DNA of 24,000 nucleotides from Streptomyces finlayi. Its GTDB lineage: Bacteria; Actinomycetota; Actinomycetes; Streptomycetales; Streptomycetaceae. The DNA is taken from contig NZ_CP045702.1 of the NCBI RefSeq assembly GCF_014216315.1, positions 7,614-31,613 on the forward strand. The letters run 5' to 3'. A program made the translations under genes and the position numbers. Of this stretch, positions 3,720 through 9,859 are shown one piece after another (within the stretch, counting starts at the first letter, position 1; every line of letters starts with the position of its first letter). The notes under the pieces are model-generated. The model saw only the letters and a list, made by a program, of their open reading frames with translations. It was not told where the DNA came from and did not search any database.

Positions 3720-6275
3720 CTACTTGACGATCTGGAGATCGTCGAAGGCGAGGTCTCGCTCGTCCTCGCGGTTGCAGCGGATGAGGACGGCCACGATCTC
3801 GTCCAGCCGCAGCCGCTCCTCCCTGCCGAAGCATCCTGCATGGAAGCGCAGCGTCGTCGGCATCGACTTGATCAGACCCGGGTTGCGCGGATACGGACGC
3901 GGAAGTCCGCCCACCACGTCGGAGTCCAACCAGGCCCGGTTGCCGTTCGTGTCCTCGACGCCCAATTCGAACCCGGTGGCACCCGGGGGAACTTGCGATC
4001 CGTCCGTCACCTCGGCGGCACGGATCCACAGCTCGGTGCCCACCAGATCGGTGGGCTCGGTGAGTTCGGACCGGAAGGTCCGGCCACCGGCGCCCGCCAG
4101 AGCCACCATGCCGGTTGTCTCACCGTAGAAGGAGTCGTTGAAGGCCCCGGGGACCTGCTGGAAGGGGAACTCGTCCGCGCTCAGACCGGACAACTGCGCG
4201 GTCGGCCGTCCCAGGGAGTTCTTCTCGATGGTGTTCCCGTCCTGATGGTTGTCGACCGTCAGCACGTCCTGTCGCGCGAAGGCCAGGTGGACGTAGTGGG
4301 TGAGTACTCCTGCGGGCAGCACCGAACCGTCGAGATACGCGGTGGCACTGCCGTGCCCCAGCAGGGTGGACCGGTACAGGGCACAGCCGTACGCCGCCAG
4401 GATGCGCTCGTGGTCCGCCCGGTCGATCACCGCGGGCTGAGGCGGCGTCCACAGACTGTCGTCATCGAGCCACTGCCGGTTGAAGAAGTTGTGGTTGGTG
4501 AAGTCGACGTACTGCTGGGACTTGAACGGCCCGGGCGCGGCCAGGTCGTAGAACTGCGCGCCGTTGTTGGACGATACGTCGCCGTCGCCCGCCGGCAGCA
4601 GAGTCATGAACGCGTGGCTGGGAGCGGGCTGGACGCTCGGCAGACCGTCGTAGTTCGCCCAGTTGGTGGGGGCCAGCGAGAGGGCCGACCTGATGGTGAC
4701 GCCGGGGAGGGAGACGAGGCTGGGGACGATCACCACCGCCTCCCCGGCCCGGGAGTGGCCCATCAATCCCACCCGGCCGAAGTCGATGCTGTGGTGGAAC
4801 ATTGAACCCGGATCGGCGTCGACCGCCTGAAAGTGCTTGATGTTCTCGATGATCAGGTCCGCCCGGTCCTCGATATTGGCGAACCCGCTGGCACCGTTGT
4901 TCAGGGCGTTGCAGTCGATGGACACGGCGATGACGCCCATCTTCGCGAGGTCGTGCTGGAAGTAGTCGTAACCGAGGTAGCTCGGGTCAGAGGCCGAGTG
5001 CATGCCGTGCGCCATGAAGACAATCGGCACCCGCCCCAGCGCCGACAGCCGCTGGTTGAACGGCTGGTTCACGCCGTCGTCCTGAGCCGGATAGTAGACG
5101 CTGCCCTTGTTGCCGCCGACGCCGTATTCGAGCCGGCCCACCGGGAACAGGTCGAGCCAGGACGGGTTTCCCGCGCTCGGCGGGTCCACGCAGGCCACGC
5201 GGATCTCCACGGCGTACAGGCCGTAACAGCCGCCGAGGTCTTGGACCACGTGCAGGGTGTCACCATGGGCCACGGTCTTGGTCAGCGTCACCATCGGTCC
5301 GCCGCCGACGCCCACGAGCGTTCCGTCGAGCCACGCGCGGACGACCGCACCGGGGACGAACGCGGAGAGCGTGATGTGCGCGTCCCCGGCCTGCACCGGG
5401 CCGACCTGAGGCGGCGGCAGACTGGAACATGGCAGCACCGTCCCGATACCCGGCAGGCTGGGCGGGTCCTCCGGGCACATCGCCTGCGTCGCGCTTGGCG
5501 GTTCCGCAGTCGTGAACGGGCCCAGTCCGCCGACGGCCAGCGTCCCGCCCCAACAGCCCCAGGTACCCAGTGGCGTGCCCCCACGGTAGACGGTGACTTT
5601 CGCACCGTTCACGACGCCGTGCACGACCACCTGCTGGGGGTCGCTCCCGTAGACCGAGTCGACGGTCGGCGCGGGCAGCGGTTGCGGCGGGAACAGCGCG
5701 TTGTGCCCGACGGACGGCGGACTCGGGTCCCCGCACAACTCGAACCAGGCGCGTGCCTGCTGCGCGAGGGCGTACGCCGGGCTCACGTCCACACCCTGTA
5801 CCGGCCCGCAGCCATCCTGCCGGCCGACCTCGGTGCCGTTAGCGGTGATCCAGACGTTCCCGCCGGTCAGCAGATTGGTGACACCCGTGCGGACGCCGCA
5901 GGCATGGACCGGAGCGGGATTGATCTGCGGCCGCGGGGGACCCGCGGGGAAGTCCACGGTGTGGTCACGGACCGTCACCGGGGCGGACCAGTCGCTCTGC
6001 GCCGTCGCAGTCGTCTGCCGCGCCCGCACCTCCTGGGTCGCCGCCAGAGCGCCAGGCAGGGGCACGGTGACGCCGAGGGGCCAGGGACAGCCACCGTTGA
6101 CCACCGGTGCGCCGACGCCGTCGACCTCGACCTCGACGTCGGCACCGGGGACGTAGTCGAAGACGACCACGGAGGTGGCGCACTGATAGACCGGCTGGTC
6201 CACGCGGGGCGGGGAGAGGAGACGGGGATCCTCCGCCAGTTGGAGGCCCTTGCGTTCGACGATCTTGGCATCCAT
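3720..6275 (-). CDS. multidomain alpha/beta-hydrolase (4 N-terminal Ig-like repeats + lipase/PAF-acetylhydrolase-like core + C-terminal beta domain)
   Basis: The ORF is open to 6380, but the MDAKIVERKG start at 6275 has GAGG upstream. Four ~80-aa tandem Cys-containing repeats, then VPIVFMAHGMH and the nucleophile elbow GLMGHSRAGEA (GxSxG). No evident signal peptide. Confidence 0.85.
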   Translation of the reverse strand: MDAKIVERKGLQLAEDPRLLSPPRVDQPVYQCATSVVVFDYVPGADVEVEVDGVGAPVVNGGCPWPLGVTVPLPGALAATQEVRARQTTATAQSDWSAPVTVRDHTVDFPAGPPRPQINPAPVHACGVRTGVTNLLTGGNVWITANGTEVGRQDGCGPVQGVDVSPAYALAQQARAWFELCGDPSPPSVGHNALFPPQPLPAPTVDSVYGSDPQQVVVHGVVNGAKVTVYRGGTPLGTWGCWGGTLAVGGLGPFTTAEPPSATQAMCPEDPPSLPGIGTVLPCSSLPPPQVGPVQAGDAHITLSAFVPGAVVRAWLDGTLVGVGGGPMVTLTKTVAHGDTLHVVQDLGGCYGLYAVEIRVACVDPPSAGNPSWLDLFPVGRLEYGVGGNKGSVYYPAQDDGVNQPFNQRLSALGRVPIVFMAHGMHSASDPSYLGYDYFQHDLAKMGVIAVSIDCNALNNGASGFANIEDRADLIIENIKHFQAVDADPGSMFHHSIDFGRVGLMGHSRAGEAVVIVPSLVSLPGVTIRSALSLAPTNWANYDGLPSVQPAPSHAFMTLLPAGDGDVSSNNGAQFYDLAAPGPFKSQQYVDFTNHNFFNRQWLDDDSLWTPPQPAVIDRADHERILAAYGCALYRSTLLGHGSATAYLDGSVLPAGVLTHYVHLAFARQDVLTVDNHQDGNTIEKNSLGRPTAQLSGLSADEFPFQQVPGAFNDSFYGETTGMVALAGAGGRTFRSELTEPTDLVGTELWIRAAEVTDGSQVPPGATGFELGVEDTNGNRAWLDSDVVGGLPRPYPRNPGLIKSMPTTLRFHAGCFGREERLRLDEIVAVLIRCNREDERDLAFDDLQIVK

Positions 6276-6596
6276 GGGCAGTACCTCGACGTACCTCGAC
6301 CAAGCAGTCAACCCCCATCTCACGTTCCCATGAGGAGGTACGACCGGCAACCGGACCGGAACATGCCTGACGCGGACCACGGATACGGGGCCCTGTCAGC
6401 TGAAGACGACCGAGTGGCGCTTCAGGCGTTCCGTGCCGTAGCGGGCGAGGGGTCGGAGGGTGAAGTAAGCCTGAGACAACGTCACCCGTCATGCGATACC
6501 ACCCAGAACAGTGCACCTATCCCGATCTCTCACCCCGCGACAGTGAACCCGCACCGCAGAAAGCAGCAGACGGGGTCAGGGCCCGCTGCTTCTCCA

Positions 6597-6637
6597 AGCC
6601 TCCGGCAGGATTCGAACCCGCGACACCGCGTCAGGAG
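6597..6637 (-). other. 3' half of a tRNA-Arg(CCU)-like gene (att-type scar), not an intact tRNA
   Basis: The minus strand reads ctcctga(anticodon loop, CCU)-cgcgg-tgtc-gcggg-ttcgaat-cctgc-cggaggc-t. T-arm and acceptor 3' strand are intact, but no matching 5' acceptor, D-arm or anticodon-stem strand lies upstream. An imperfect hairpin plus TTTC follows at about 6559-6592. Confidence 0.55.
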
Positions 6638-6689
6638 TCCTCCCTGGCGGAACAGCGACGCGTGGAAAGGCGGTCGCGTGGCGTGGGGG

Positions 6690-6706
6690 CCGGGGAACCA
6701 CCCCGG
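6690..6706 (-). terminator. short GC hairpin just downstream of heliorhodopsin stop
   Basis: ccgggg-aacca-ccccgg, 6-bp stem with 5-nt loop, 11 nt from the stop codon; no U tail. Confidence 0.3.
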
Positions 6707-6717
6707 ACGAAGGAGGT

Positions 6718-7569
6718 TCAGCCGGCCAGCGAGCCGGTGAAGATCTGCCAGGCCAGAAGTGACTTCGCCACGAGGCTGAGAACCAGGTAGGCCTTCTCCC
6801 CGTATGCGTAGTCGGACCACCGGCCGACTCCGCGGTACTGGAGCCACTGGTTGAGACCGAAGCTGAAGAAGAGGGCGGCCTGGACGAGAACGATCCCGTA
6901 CACGAAGCCGGGGATGGCCCCGGTCGCGACGATGTTGTACGTGATCGAGAGCCACGGCGTCACACCGACCAGCGTCCCGAACCAGAACGGGAGCATCGTG
7001 GTCACCACCCGTCCCGGCGGGTTCATCTCCTCCTCGATCCAGCCGAAGAGAATCATCCCGACGTTGGCGCCGATCACGGCGATGACGGCGTTGAGGCTGG
7101 TGATGCCCGAGTAGAAGCCGATGAGGAGCACCATCAGGGTCGCGCTCAGCGCGTACTCCAGCCACCTGAATCGGTTGATGCCGCGTCTGAGGTCGCGTTC
7201 GTAGGTGCCGCGGCACACCGTCGCCGTCAGCAGGTGGTCCAGTGCCGCGAGGGTGAGGAAGACGGCGACGGCCCAGCCGATCGGCACGTCGAACAGTGCT
7301 TCGGGGGCAGGCGCCTTCGTCCCTGGGGGCCCCTCGGGCAGAGAGGAGGTGACGGTGATCGAGAAGCTGCCGGCGAGGAAGAGGATCGCCAGGGCCTGGA
7401 CCAGGTGCAGCAGCGTGAGCCCCACGTTCCACGCACGGAGCCCGGCGAGGCGTTCGGCGGTGACACCGGTGGCCACCGGTGTGCCGTCCTCTCTTCTCAA
7501 AATTCCTCCCGAGGGTCGGCGCCGCAGTACGTCTGCATGGTCGTCCCGTCCGGGTGGGGATGACGGCAA
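6718..7569 (-). CDS. heliorhodopsin (retinal-binding 7-TM protein)
   Basis: End-to-end resemblance to heliorhodopsin 48C12 as I recall it: LLHLVQ, LAALDHLL, RFRWLEYALSATLMVLLI, ILFGWIEE, LPFWFG, IPGFVYGI, QWLQYRGVGRWSDY, EKAYLVLSLVAKSLLAWQIF (Schiff-base Lys). The ORF maximum starts at TTG 7569, but third-position bias suggests a real start at TTG 7500 or GTG 7476. Confidence 0.9.
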   Translation of the reverse strand: MPSSPPGRDDHADVLRRRPSGGILRREDGTPVATGVTAERLAGLRAWNVGLTLLHLVQALAILFLAGSFSITVTSSLPEGPPGTKAPAPEALFDVPIGWAVAVFLTLAALDHLLTATVCRGTYERDLRRGINRFRWLEYALSATLMVLLIGFYSGITSLNAVIAVIGANVGMILFGWIEEEMNPPGRVVTTMLPFWFGTLVGVTPWLSITYNIVATGAIPGFVYGIVLVQAALFFSFGLNQWLQYRGVGRWSDYAYGEKAYLVLSLVAKSLLAWQIFTGSLAG

Positions 7570-7916
7570 TCACGTCGCTGCCCCGCCAAAAGCCACACGA
7601 GTGGCACAACGAACCGCCGCACCCGCCGCCGCACCCGCCGCTCTCCGGGACGGTCCGCGCGCCGAGAGCGAGTTCGCCCCCCATCCCCTGCGGTGCTGAT
7701 GTGGCCCGTTAACTCTTTCGCGGTCCTGCAACGCGACCGCTGGCCTCTGGGCCCGGCATGACTGTTGCCCTCTGCCGAAGGCCCCCCGAAGATGATCATC
7801 GCCACTGTCCACAACCTCCCGGGACAGGACAGCTAGCGCACGGTCCGGTGCCTCGGCACAGTCCCGGAAGGAGGTGCGCTCGCGTCCGGCAAGCGCCAGC
7901 CCGAGCGGCACCACCG

Positions 7917-7930
7917 CCGGTGATCACCGG
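7917..7930. promoter_or_regulatory. 14-bp perfect palindrome CCGGTGATCACCGG between the B12-binding gene and heliorhodopsin
   Basis: Read directly; 50 nt downstream of the B12-binding gene stop and about 350-440 nt upstream of the heliorhodopsin start; the 2-nt centre is too tight for a hairpin loop, so a protein-binding site is more likely. Confidence 0.3.
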
Positions 7931-7979
7931 ATGAGCCGATCGCCCGGTACGCGTGCGTGTCCCGAATCTGCCGCAGGGA

Positions 7980-9035
7980 TCAGGCGTCCGCCCAGGTGTG
8001 TCCGGCCCGCTCCAGTCGTCCTCGGCCCGCGGCCAGATGGGTCAGGGCGCGGGGAAGATCACTCAACGGCTCGCAGAGGGCCTGGACCGCCAGGTCCAGG
8101 CCGGCCGGCGGTATACCGCGGTGGGCCAGCACACCGGCGAGGAACAGCAGGAAGTCGGTGAACACGCGCGGGTCGTCGACGAAGACACCCGCGGCGAGGA
8201 AATCCACCAGGAACCCCAGGTCCTCGACAGCGGCCTCGTACCGGTCGTCGGCGCACCGGCCCATCGGCGGGAAGTGCCGGCGCAGGTGGTCGGCCAGGTG
8301 CCGCAGAAGCTCACCGCGACGGCTGACGAGTTGGGTGTACTCCCCGTCAGCCAGGTGGTCCAGTGCGGGCTCCCCGGACAGCGGCGGCGGCCACTGTCCC
8401 ACCAGCAGGTCCGCGGCGTCCACCGCGGTGCGCGCGTAGAGGTCGGCACCCAGCGCACGGGCCCAGATGCCGTCCGGTCCGAAGCCGGCGCCACCGACCA
8501 TGACCGGGACACGCGCCAGTCGGCACGCCTCGATCGTGTGGTACACCCGGGGCAGGCGCACCGCCAGCATGCACGACAGGACGATCAGATCAGAGCCGTT
8601 CTGATGGAGATACGAGATCAGGTGTGCCGTGGGTACCCCGGCACCGAGGAACCGCACCGTGAAGCCGCGCAGTCGCAGCACCTCCGCAACAATGTGGGCG
8701 GGCAGGGTGTGCCATTCGCCGTCCGGACAGGCCACCACGACGCTCCCGAGAGGATGGTCGGGGACCGCTGTCGCGGCGGCGAGTGCGGAGACTGCCCGGT
8801 TGCTGACATGGGTGGCCGCGTGTTCCTGGGCCACACTCCACTCGTTGGTCACCCAGTGCTCGCCAACCGCTGCCTGGGCGGGTGCGATCAGGCCGAGCAG
8901 CACGTCCTCGGCGCTGACGCCGCTGGCGAGAAGTTCCAGGACGAGTGCCACGGCGGCGGTCTCGTCCGCTCGGGCCAGGTGGTCGTCGAAGGCCGTGCGG
9001 ACACTCTCGATGGCGTCGGAGCGCTCGGCGGTCAC
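7980..9035 (-). CDS. cobalamin (B12)-binding domain protein, CarH-type photoreceptor-like module without DNA-binding domain
   Basis: 351-aa GTG-start ORF. Helical bundle with exact Wx9EH (HWVTNEWSVAQEH), then Rossmann B12-binding domain VVVACPDGEWHTLPAHIVAEVLRLRGFTVRFLG...DLIVLSC...PVMVGG, then a ~130-aa extra helical C-terminal domain. GTGA overlap with the upstream PP2C stop. Confidence 0.88.
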   Translation of the reverse strand: MTAERSDAIESVRTAFDDHLARADETAAVALVLELLASGVSAEDVLLGLIAPAQAAVGEHWVTNEWSVAQEHAATHVSNRAVSALAAATAVPDHPLGSVVVACPDGEWHTLPAHIVAEVLRLRGFTVRFLGAGVPTAHLISYLHQNGSDLIVLSCMLAVRLPRVYHTIEACRLARVPVMVGGAGFGPDGIWARALGADLYARTAVDAADLLVGQWPPPLSGEPALDHLADGEYTQLVSRRGELLRHLADHLRRHFPPMGRCADDRYEAAVEDLGFLVDFLAAGVFVDDPRVFTDFLLFLAGVLAHRGIPPAGLDLAVQALCEPLSDLPRALTHLAAGRGRLERAGHTWADA

Positions 9036-9448
9036 TGCGACTGCCCCCCGTCCGTCGGCGCCGCAGGGGCCGCAGCCTGCACGGCCAGAACGGCGAGGTC
9101 GTCATGGTCGCCTCCGGCCAGCCACTGCCCGCTGCGCAGGTCGATACGCTCGGCGACCGCGCCGGCCGGCATGCCGAGGCAGGCGGCCAGGTCGCGCATC
9201 AACCGTCGTTCGCCGTACATCTCCTGCTCCGTCGGCCCGCCGCTCGCCTCGGTCACACCGTCGCTGTACAACAGCAGTAGTTCGCCGGCCGCCAGCCGGA
9301 TCTCCGTCTGGTGGAAGTCCGGGTCGGGCAGGGCGCCGACCAGTGTCCCGCCTATGTGCACTTCCTCCACCGCGCCGTCCTTGCGCAGCACCAGTGGTGG
9401 GAGGTGGCCGCGGCCTCGTCCCGCTCGGCGGCCGCCAGCCACCGCCAC
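9032..9448 (-). pseudogene. PP2C/SpoIIE-family serine phosphatase, C-terminal ~115 aa only (5'-truncated)
   Basis: GHLPPLVLRKDG...AAGELLLLYSDGVTEA...YGERRLMRDL...DHDDLAVLAV matches the last third of the SpoIIE/PP2C domain; the upstream two thirds and any sensor domain are absent, replaced by a transposase HTH stub. Confidence 0.7.
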
Positions 9449-9666
9449 ACCGCACGCTCCCGCACCCCCAGCACGCCCGCCGCCGACCTCACCTGCCCAG
9501 TGGTGAGCTTCCCCTCCCGCCGCAGGGCCAGCAGACGGCGCACCACAGGCCCCCGCAACGCCCGAACCGACACAGCCGGCAAAGCCCCACTCGAATCACC
9601 ACCCGCCCCTTCCGGAGTCGGACCCTGCCATGTCTGATCCACACCCCCGAGCACACCAACACCCAT
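9420..9666 (-). mobile_element. N-terminal helix-turn-helix stub of a transposase/integrase
   Basis: VVRRLLALRREGKLTTGQVRSAAGVLGVRERAVWRWLAAAERD is a typical transposase N-terminal HTH; the reading frame runs straight into the PP2C remnant with no catalytic domain. Confidence 0.5.
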
Positions 9667-9810
9667 CGACCAGCGGATCAGAACTCACGAAACTGAGACA
9701 GCATCACCCCTCACGCGATAACACTCCACGACAGCGATGTCCCATGGATCTCTCACGCCCAGGACAGTGACCCCACACCCCGAAACAACCCATGAGCAGC
9801 AACAACACAC

Positions 9811-9859
9811 CCAGACCCCGCTGTCTCCCACCCCACCGTCCCAAAACCGAGAGATCGCA
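9811..9859. repeat. element-terminus-like repeat, copy A (ends in AAACCGAGAGATCGCA)
   Basis: Shares AxCCCCGCT ... (21-32 nt) ... AAACCGAGAGATCGCA with 12061-12120 in direct orientation; similarity stops exactly after GATCGCA, where the MOSC fragment context begins. Confidence 0.6.

Follow-up and report, generated by a model that had tools for sequence, protein, structure and literature searches.

A heliorhodopsin gene and an orphaned photocobilin gene probably brought together by rearrangement in Streptomyces finlayi

In Streptomyces finlayi, a heliorhodopsin (HeR) gene and a gene for a cobalamin-binding photoreceptor lie side by side on the minus strand of a 24,000-nucleotide stretch of contig NZ_CP045702.1, which we refer to here as the window. 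Our analysis indicates that the two genes are very probably independent units that were joined by rearrangement in a transposon-scarred, variable Streptomyces region, and that they do not form a light-response cassette. The initial annotation of this locus described four minus-strand or spacer elements, namely HeR, a B12 protein, a SpoIIE remnant, and a 14-bp palindrome. All four are present (Table 1), and profile and structure matches agree with the identities proposed for the genes: a heliorhodopsin, a cobalamin sensor-like protein, and the remnant of a phosphatase. Of the two origins that it offered for the adjacency, a coincidence of island mosaicism is supported by the breakpoints, the transposon scars, and the lack of conservation of the adjacency in related loci.

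Table 1. Features of the HeR-photocobilin locus, in window positions.
Feature	Position	Strand	Basis or remark
Transposon-end-like sequence, repeat copy A	6440..6600	minus	Direct, 76% column identity to copy B; just beyond HeR
tRNA 3′-half-like fragment, T-arm GCGGGTTCGAATCCTGC and acceptor strand	6597..6644	minus	Downstream of HeR; read from sequence
HeR gene, 260 aa, TTG start	6718..7500	minus	Profiles, structure match, homolog lengths, ribosome-binding site
20-bp perfect palindrome ACACCGGTGGCCACCGGTGT	7463..7482		Inside HeR codons 7-13
HeR upstream block, ~115 bp, conserved; presumed promoter or operator	7501..7616	minus	Alignment
Copy of a dispersed Streptomyces repeat, ~78 bp	7705..7782		In spacer
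14-bp palindrome CCGGTGATCACCGG	7917..7930		50 nt past photocobilin stop codon
Standalone photocobilin gene, intact, 351 aa	7980..9035	minus	B12-binding_2, B12-binding, and C-terminal photoglobin
GAF-SpoIIE (PP2C) gene, 3′ remnant, last 128/514 codons	9032..9416	minus	Homology break at 9416
Mu/TnsB-type transposase gene, 5′ fragment, ~83 codons, HTH	9417..9666	minus	tblastn
Transposon-end-like sequence, repeat copy B	9660..9830	minus	Precedes transposase fragment

The HeR open reading frame (6718-7569, minus strand) matches Pfam PF18761 (E = 4.4e-94) and the NCBIfam model 'heliorhodopsin HeR', NF038020 (E = 9e-77); both matches are full-length and exceed the curated thresholds (314.8 versus 26.7 bits for the former, 257.8 versus 100 bits for the latter). 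Homology to the 48C12 HeR structure 6SU3 also extends over the full length (E = 1.6e-63). The Schiff-base lysine (..LVAKSLLAWQIF) and the counterion glutamate (FRWLEY) align with 6SU3 and 9LJJ and fall on K241 (TM7) and E107 (TM3) of 48C12. We place the start of the gene at the TTG at 7500 because the homologs are 260 aa long and a GGGAGG ribosome-binding site lies 5′ of this codon; the relatives use ATG or GTG. Consistent with membership in the 48C12/actinobacterial clade, the protein is 75 to 98% identical to the HeRs of many Actinomycetota, but it differs from them in being flanked by junction DNA and transposon scars. Homology to the 82 related HeR loci is limited to the gene and 100 to 250 bp upstream, ending at or below position 7756, and the flanks are different in all 82. 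The upstream block listed in Table 1 can be aligned in 25 Streptomycetaceae loci and the window, with unrelated sequence further upstream, and copies of HeR that are 95 to 96% identical are found in the window, in L006/L087, and in L086, three settings unrelated to one another. With its open reading frame and this upstream block, HeR forms an autonomous unit of one gene, and its context differs in each relative examined.

Several candidate elements in the HeR leader were considered and rejected. A structured RNA or riboswitch is not indicated by RNAalifold (covariation term -0.18, one compensatory pair), and a search of the leader against Rfam returned nothing at the gathering threshold and only chance-level eukaryotic matches at E < 1. 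The consensus for the Sigma-LitS light promoter is GCATCCR-N15-CVGAAD (PMC11519972), and its sole match upstream of HeR carries three mismatches, which is the background level. A GGGTAC-like box reminiscent of a SigB-type promoter appears in some HeR leaders, but the -35 element is absent at the spacing of PMC8346170. A 52-bp segment found upstream of HeR in the window and downstream of it in L006 had suggested circular permutation or a mobile circle; we dropped this idea because the segment is part of the ~78-bp dispersed repeat. The repeat itself, which also lies downstream of HeR in L006, occurs at 105 places on 73 Streptomyces and Kitasatospora plasmid records with 85 to 88% identity and is neither a tRNA nor a member of an Rfam family.

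The neighboring 351-aa B12 protein is a standalone photocobilin, an assignment that sharpens its annotation as a 'cobalamin-binding protein'. Its open reading frame (7980-9035, minus strand) contains PF02607 and PF02310, with Pfam coverage limited to residues 15-207, whereas residues 19-341 align with residues 13-333 of the SasPcob chain (PDB 8J2W/8J2X; E = 9e-84). Similar to SasPcob from Saccharothrix syringae (Zhang et al. 2024, PMC10979010), the protein has the three-domain architecture along its whole length and keeps the Trp61/Glu71-His72 adenosyl pocket, the lower axial histidine, and the equivalents of His137 and Asp270. All four signatures of light-responsive AdoCbl proteins, GxxW, EH, GxxH, and GxxxP (PMC11796333), can be read in it (G58-W61, E71-H72, G106-H109, and G131-P135). 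Residues W61, E71, H72, H109, H138, and D272 are conserved, the first, second, and fourth of these being invariant among 20 homologs. In the biliverdin pocket, D272 and H138 are kept, but Trp296 of SasPcob corresponds to Phe298, a position that is W, F, or Y family-wide. By homology to SasPcob, the protein would be expected to bind adenosylcobalamin and biliverdin and to form a dimer in the dark; light may then shift its oligomeric state and so modulate a partner enzyme. The CarH/LitR family of AdoB12-dependent light-sensing repressors has in common with this protein a B12-binding module and the Wx9EH light signature, and CarH is the best NCBIfam match of the module. That match, however, scores 66 bits where the cut-off is 400 and covers profile positions 81-262 only, and no MerR or HTH domain was detected with Pfam and NCBIfam profiles; the protein is therefore not a member of the CarH/LitR family.

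The partner enzyme of the photocobilin family appears to be a GAF-SpoIIE (PP2C) phosphatase, the product of the gene directly 5′ of photocobilin; a gene for a STAS anti-sigma antagonist is often nearby, and an association of photocobilins with SpoIIE has been noted earlier (PMC10979010, PMC8717448). A SpoIIE gene lies directly upstream on the same strand in 70 of 80 metagenomic photocobilin loci, and the sequence of the other 10 extends less than 230 nt upstream; the operon is thus intact in 70/70 informative metagenomic loci and also in L001-L005. The two reading frames overlap or abut in every other locus, and in the window the stop codon of the SpoIIE remnant overlaps the photocobilin start (GTGA). 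The full-length partner, a 514-aa protein, contains a GAF and a SpoIIE domain; the window keeps 128 of its codons, short of a complete phosphatase gene upstream of photocobilin. The open reading frame at 9032-9448 (minus strand) covers only positions 81-190 of the 192 in the SpoIIE profile. The YSDGVTEA and DHDDLAVLAV motifs are kept, but GGDFY and GDVCGKG, which the L001 protein has, are missing, leaving an incomplete catalytic domain without the full set of metal-binding motifs.

The break lies inside the SpoIIE gene: window positions 7951-9416 are 93% identical at the DNA level to L001-L003, with nothing in common beyond. Here the gene is cut internally, at approximately 9404-9416, and fused to a truncated piece of a Mu-type transposase gene, which is out of frame with the remnant. 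By tblastn, this piece is 94% identical to a plasmid-borne Streptomyces 'Mu transposase C-terminal domain-containing protein'. Positions 9403-9792 are homologous to transposon ends and the 5′ regions of Mu-type transposase genes on Streptomyces plasmids. At the other side of the locus, positions 6471-6563 match a region ~70 bp from an N-terminal transposase fragment on plasmid NZ_CP109179, and the HeR-photocobilin block is bracketed by the two transposon-end-like direct repeats. The tRNA-like fragment downstream of HeR is common to L006 and in part to L086; it is a 3′ fragment only, and ARAGORN finds no complete tRNA there. Truncated genes also occur elsewhere in the window, as does part of a DDE transposase. 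We propose that a transposon-linked rearrangement severed photocobilin from its SpoIIE partner and placed it beside HeR. The SpoIIE gene is cut to 128 codons at the transposase join, and photocobilin is therefore left without its native promoter and its presumed output enzyme.

Partner switching of the RsbU/RsbV/RsbW type can take a photoreceptor input, as with YtvA in Bacillus subtilis. By its gene content, the SpoIIE (PP2C)-photocobilin-STAS set resembles such systems and suggests that light acts on a PP2C whose substrate is the phosphorylated STAS antagonist, so that the set could feed light into partner-switching control of a sigma factor. The window differs in having no STAS gene and a PP2C remnant from which the N-terminal sensor region is missing, along with the first two of the catalytic motifs. 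The link to SpoIIE and STAS genes is a trait of the SasPcob/photoglobin family (Schneider et al. 2021, PMC8717448), from which the window locus departs in its 128-codon partner and in having no STAS gene following.

To place the adjacency in a wider context, we surveyed 162 related loci, a sample of genomes comprising 82 actinobacterial HeR loci (~1.43 Mb of flanks) and 80 metagenomic photocobilin loci, the latter retrieved with an alignment as query, as a single-protein query gave nothing. Neither a photocobilin gene nor a SpoIIE-photocobilin pair was found near HeR in the 82 HeR loci, and HeR was found near none of the 80 photocobilin genes, which leaves the adjacency unique to the window among 82 HeR and 85 photocobilin loci. 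Within 10 kb of HeR, a SpoIIE gene is present in five to six of the 82 loci, or ~4 per Mb. Streptomyces genomes carry roughly 45 PP2C genes per 8-9 Mb, and on this comparison the density of SpoIIE genes near HeR is about that of the genome as a whole. The comparative test proposed with the initial annotation, enrichment of B12-domain or SpoIIE genes beside HeR, thus came out negative for photocobilin and at background for SpoIIE.

The genes are same-strand neighbors as first described, but the gap is 479 bp with the HeR start at 7500, not the ~410 bp given initially. A perfect 14-bp palindrome is indeed present there, yet as such it does not exceed chance: the window contains five, and first-order Markov simulations predict 3.5 ± 2.0. 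Neither conserved unit reaches it, as homology to HeR loci stops at or below 7756 and homology to photocobilin loci at 7951; no related locus has a counterpart in the corresponding position, and the palindrome lacks a T-tract. We rejected it as an operator or terminator. The 20-bp perfect palindrome is kept in most Streptomyces HeR genes, and its core, CCGGTG-N2-CACCGG, has arms identical to those of the spacer palindrome. Exactly two such sites, at 7466 and 7917, flank the HeR upstream region, with 0.37 expected when one mismatch is allowed; chance accounts weakly for this pair. No intrinsic terminator is predicted in the 479-bp spacer, and with both genes on one strand, read-through from photocobilin into HeR is possible.

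These paired sites, the terminator-free 479-bp spacer on a common strand, the membership of both proteins in photoreceptor families, and the HTH+B12 genes adjoining HeR in other lineages all speak for a functional light-response cassette, in which HeR and photocobilin would be co-transcribed or co-regulated and the B12 arm would control the rhodopsin, perhaps through the spacer palindrome. We nevertheless consider this reading very unlikely. The adjacency recurs at none of the surveyed loci, HeR carries its own conserved upstream block, and the palindrome sits in junction DNA of neither unit. Photocobilin lacks a DNA-binding domain, and the PP2C arm through which it would signal is broken at the transposase junction. 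Nothing indicates that photocobilin controls HeR or shares control with it. A later recruitment, in which the orphan is expressed, for example, by read-through from a promoter of the transposase fragment, and is tied to HeR by a common transcript or by contact, seems even harder to credit. If it were true, the strain would possess a unique retinal, B12, and biliverdin light-sensing unit built by transposon-mediated gene shuffling. Least probable of all is that the junctions are chimeric assembly joins at repeats. Transposon-end-like copies and the 78-bp element do lie at or near the joins, but the SpoIIE/transposase join falls within unique coding sequence rather than at a repeat, and an identical photocobilin protein has been deposited from S. 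finlayi.

A more serious possibility, although we hold it only tentatively, is that the orphan acts in trans and without involvement of HeR, its target being a PP2C/STAS module or some other enzyme whose gene lies elsewhere in the genome. The photocobilin open reading frame is intact, with all cofactor-binding residues, and an SD-like GGGGGG precedes its GTG start. The protein is 92% identical to its orthologs in L001-L003, and its dN/dS of 0.30, compared with 0.37 to 0.39 within the family, gives no sign of relaxed selection. In addition, standalone photocobilins can regulate a separate enzyme by protein-protein contact in vitro (PMC10979010). Two observations speak against action in trans: every other photocobilin locus encodes the partner in cis, and the native promoter, 5′ of SpoIIE, has been lost. 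An intact reading frame with this dN/dS is compatible with a recent event as well as with a protein still working in trans, and photocobilin may still be functional. Whichever applies, rearrangement of two independent units is the reading that we favor for the adjacency.

The initial annotation knew of no link between HeR and B12 photoreceptors, which holds for photocobilin but not for HTH+B12 regulators. CarH-like genes of this kind lie directly beside HeR in L040 (a MerR+B12 gene), L059, L061, and L168, with relatives beside type-1 rhodopsin genes, and in Acidimicrobiia they adjoin HeR or type-1 rhodopsin genes in 6/6 sampled homologs. We found no TTAGC-type direct repeats near HeR in L059, L061, and L168. 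Four 10-bp repeats of this type are candidate binding sites for the HTH_17+B12 protein of Acidimicrobiia. True HTH+B12 proteins beside HeR or type-1 rhodopsin occur only in other lineages (L040, L059, L061, and L168-L176), and they represent a B12 module unlike photocobilin. Because B12-binding genes of other architectures adjoin HeR elsewhere, a connection between retinal and B12 is not absurd in principle, and the Acidimicrobiia arrangement suggests B12-dependent light control of rhodopsin expression.

Overall, HeR and photocobilin are members of known gene families, and chance within a rearranged region is the best account of why they are neighbors. The pairing of SpoIIE with photocobilin in 70/70 informative loci suggests that standalone photocobilins act physiologically through PP2C, a question left open by the 2024 structural paper. 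The window locus offers a natural 'partner-less' photocobilin, in which the ability of the sensor to act in trans could be examined.

In the direction of transcription, the minus strand of this high-GC actinobacterial DNA carries a SpoIIE (PP2C) phosphatase remnant, a B12-binding gene, a spacer, and a heliorhodopsin (HeR) gene. The B12-binding protein is identical to one deposited from Streptomyces finlayi, and the GTG start of its gene overlaps the stop codon of the remnant. The initial annotation had recognized the three genes as same-strand neighbors, and profile matches bear this out (PF18761, PF02607/PF02310, and a partial SpoIIE). It had placed the HeR and B12 genes ≈410 bp apart; because HeR homologs are 260 aa long and the TTG codon at 7500, where relatives have ATG or GTG, has a GGGAGG ribosome-binding site ahead of it, we start HeR at this codon and measure a spacer of 479 bp. 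Downstream of HeR lies an 886-aa ORF (3720-6380) whose coding signal is strong (GC3 0.87) and which contains a GHSRAG serine-hydrolase-like motif; it has no Pfam or NCBIfam match and is absent beside HeR in every related locus.

Feature coordinates in the window and, where a locus is named, in related loci
Feature	Position	Strand	Details
HeR	7500..6718	minus	PF18761 4.4e-94; NCBIfam HeR 9e-77
B12-binding protein, 351 aa	9035..7980	minus	PF02607 + PF02310
SpoIIE C-terminal remnant ORF	9448..9032	minus	Pfam SpoIIE positions 81-190 of 192 only
Mu/TnsB-type transposase fragment	9666..9417	minus	first ≈83 residues (HTH); 94% identity to Streptomyces plasmid copy
14-bp palindrome CCGGTGATCACCGG	7917-7930		spacer; part of neither conserved unit
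20-bp perfect palindrome ACACCGGTGGCCACCGGTGT	7463-7482		HeR codons 7-13 (TPVATGV)
≈78-bp dispersed repeat copy	7705-7782		spacer; 105 places on 73 Streptomyces/Kitasatospora plasmid records, 85-88% identity
Transposon-end-like direct copies	6440-6600 and 9660-9830		≈150 bp, 76% identical
tRNA 3'-half-like fragment	6597-6644		T-arm + acceptor strand; ≈75 bp downstream of HeR stop
DDE_Tnp_4 transposase fragment, 203 aa	18952-19563		
Short-chain dehydrogenase ORF	23571-24000		runs off window end; C-terminal part of profile only
HTH_17+B12 gene, L169-L176	4001-4795 in most; L173:1387-2181		
TTAGC-type repeats	L170:3930-3975, L171:3930-3975, L174:3920-3965, L175:3930-3975		

The description of the B12 protein as a B12-type sensor was correct and can be refined: it is, judged by its sequence, a standalone photocobilin. 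Crystal structures of SasPcob, a photocobilin of the standalone type (PDB 8J2W/8J2X), align with the protein along its whole length (E 9e-84), including the C-terminal ≈140 aa left blank by Pfam. Schneider et al. 2021 (PMC8717448) described this region as the 'photoglobin' domain, and Zhang et al. 2024 (PMC10979010) showed that it binds biliverdin. The functional residues named in the latter study, Trp61, Glu71-His72, His108 (the lower axial ligand), His137, and Asp270 of SasPcob, correspond to W61, E71-H72, H109, H138, and D272 here, and Trp296 to F298, at a position that is aromatic (W/F/Y) across the family. All four light-responsive signatures defined in PMC11796333 (GxxW, EH, GxxH, and GxxxP) are found. 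The ORF is intact, with a dN/dS of 0.30 relative to the closely related locus L001 (0.37–0.39 within the family). We rejected an identity as CarH or LitR, the DNA-binding B12 light-sensing repressors; the protein has no HTH domain, and its NCBIfam CarH score of 66 bits is below the cut-off of 400. Both genes, HeR and photocobilin, belong to known kinds.

The initial annotation raised the possibility that the two genes form a light-response cassette and proposed looking for enrichment of B12 or SpoIIE genes near HeR. We searched six-frame ORFs of 82 HeR loci (80 genome loci and 2 Logan contigs, ≈1.43 Mb) by phmmer and with an HMM from the B12 module, and no photocobilin was found near HeR in any of them. 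SpoIIE genes lie within 10 kb of HeR in only 5–6 of these loci, or ≈4 per Mb, a density comparable to the genome-wide one, as a Streptomyces genome carries ≈45 PP2C genes. HeR was likewise absent near photocobilin from all 80 metagenomic photocobilin loci sampled and from L001-L005, the loci of photocobilin relatives. Among the loci examined, the adjacency is unique to the window, and the cassette is left unsupported.

The SpoIIE-photocobilin pair is essentially invariant, since in 70/80 of the metagenomic loci SpoIIE is the gene directly upstream, in the same orientation, and the other 10 have <230 nt of upstream sequence. In the closest relatives (L001-L003, 92% identity), the gene for a 514-aa GAF-SpoIIE phosphatase shares 4 bp with the photocobilin start. 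At the loci of a 64%-identical homolog (L004:8296-20433, L005:2-12202), a carotenoid (crt) cluster comes directly after the SpoIIE, photocobilin, and STAS genes; it contains two phytoene desaturase-like genes, phytoene synthase, a Rieske protein, a methyltransferase, and lycopene cyclase. This arrangement hints that the SpoIIE-photocobilin-STAS module may provide carotenogenesis with a light input. In the window, only 7951-9416 is homologous at the DNA level to L001-L003 (93%), and this homology ends within the phosphatase gene. The remnant retains the YSDGVTEA and DHDDLAVLAV motifs; the full protein also has a GAF region and GGDFY and GDVCGKG motifs, all of them missing here. Directly adjoining the break, in a different reading frame, is the Mu/TnsB-type transposase fragment, and DNA homology to the 5' regions of such transposons spans 9403-9792.

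BLASTN similarity of HeR loci to the window is limited to the HeR ORF and 100–250 bp upstream. Within this, an ≈115-bp block (window 7501-7616) is common to 25 Streptomycetaceae loci (e.g., L007, L012, L018), with 70–100% per-column conservation across Streptomyces, Kitasatospora, and Wenjunlia, and contains the almost invariant CCGGTACGACCATGC; further flanks all differ. The block yielded no RNA covariation or structure and no Rfam match, and neither a sigma-LitS nor a well-spaced SigB-type promoter was found in it. HeR units of ≈1.1 kb that are 95–96% identical (window 6585-7708, L006:9805-10915, L086:9836-10888, L087:7755-8793) occupy three unrelated contexts (window, L006/L087, and L086), including one in Kitasatospora, which suggests that a single-gene unit has recently moved horizontally. 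Given the limited homology, the shared upstream block, and the three contexts, HeR appears as a lone, often relocated gene with its own regulatory DNA.

Junction DNA makes up the spacer that separates the two conserved units. On the plasmid records, copies of its ≈78-bp dispersed repeat always lie in unannotated DNA; the repeat is not a tRNA, is not in Rfam, and is predicted to fold no better than its shuffled versions (z = −1.0). The transposon-end-like direct copies represent a sequence found ahead of Mu/TnsB-type transposase genes on linear plasmids of Streptomyces, and they flank the whole segment from the transposase fragment through the SpoIIE remnant and photocobilin to HeR. The tRNA-like fragment, common to L006 and partly to L086, has no intact tRNA gene at its site and may be an old attachment-site remnant. 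The DDE_Tnp_4 fragment and the partial dehydrogenase are further signs of rearrangement, and the repeats, bracketing copies, tRNA fragment, and truncated genes together mark a mosaic, rearrangement-prone region. Elsewhere in the window, an ORF with a Scabin-like (ADP-ribosyltransferase toxin) domain contains a perfect tandem repeat of 9 bp (GCAACCGGT x 7.6, 18115-18182).

The other reading offered initially, coincidence through island mosaicism, is thus favored by the lack of recurring adjacency, the truncated partner, the junction DNA, and the transposon-end-like repeats. Read-through transcription across the spacer is possible, as a scan tuned to T-tailed hairpins gave no terminator-like site there. 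The perfect 14-bp palindrome reported in the spacer is present and is unremarkable by itself, since the window holds five such palindromes versus 3.5 ± 2.0 expected. The window has exactly two copies of its motif, CCGGTG-N2-CACCGG, the second one spanning HeR codons 8-12 at the core of a 20-bp palindrome that most Streptomyces HeR orthologs retain, including its less common GGT glycine codon. Two copies are an over-representation (0.37 expected even with one mismatch allowed); because no other HeR locus has a second copy upstream, save for a partial exception in L032, the pair is probably a coincidence.

The initial statement that no functional link between HeR and B12 photoreceptor modules has been described calls for a qualification: HTH+B12 genes, a different B12 module, adjoin HeR in four loci (L040, L059, L061, and L168). 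B12-binding genes occur in 3/82 HeR loci, each time as the immediate same-strand neighbor. In two Acidimicrobiales MAGs (L059:10790-11566, L061:10841-11773), an HTH_17+B12 gene follows HeR by ≈50 bp; independently, in an uncultured Actinomycetota MAG (L040:8717-9754), a classic MerR + B12-binding gene of the LitR/CarH type lies ≈250 bp upstream of HeR. The HTH_17+B12 family is large (941 matches at E<1e-10), and its ≈260-aa regulators carry the Wx9EH, GxxH, and GxxxP signatures. All six sampled homologs (52–75% identity) adjoin a rhodopsin gene, as do those of L059 and L061: one lies beside HeR (L168, gene 4001-4774), and five lie 115–135 bp from a divergently transcribed type-1 rhodopsin. In one subclade, the neighbor is HeR on the same strand; in the others, it is a type-1 rhodopsin transcribed divergently, with blh-like dioxygenase and lycopene cyclase genes ≤3 kb away in L171-L173. 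The divergent intergenic regions contain four tandem ≈10-bp direct repeats (TTAGCnnnnn), none of which were seen near HeR in L059, L061, or L168. CarH operators are direct repeats, and the TTAGC-type repeats appear operator-like in recalling them. Our literature search found no paper connecting CarH/LitR-type regulators to rhodopsin genes; PMC11109279 goes no further than naming 'MerR family transcriptional regulator' as one of the frequent neighbors of HeR. Overall, these loci support B12-dependent light control of rhodopsin genes as a general notion, although the link runs through DNA-binding B12 photoreceptors in other lineages rather than through the photocobilin/PP2C module or in Streptomyces. 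The B12-rhodopsin association in Acidimicrobiia, a by-product of this analysis, merits a separate look.
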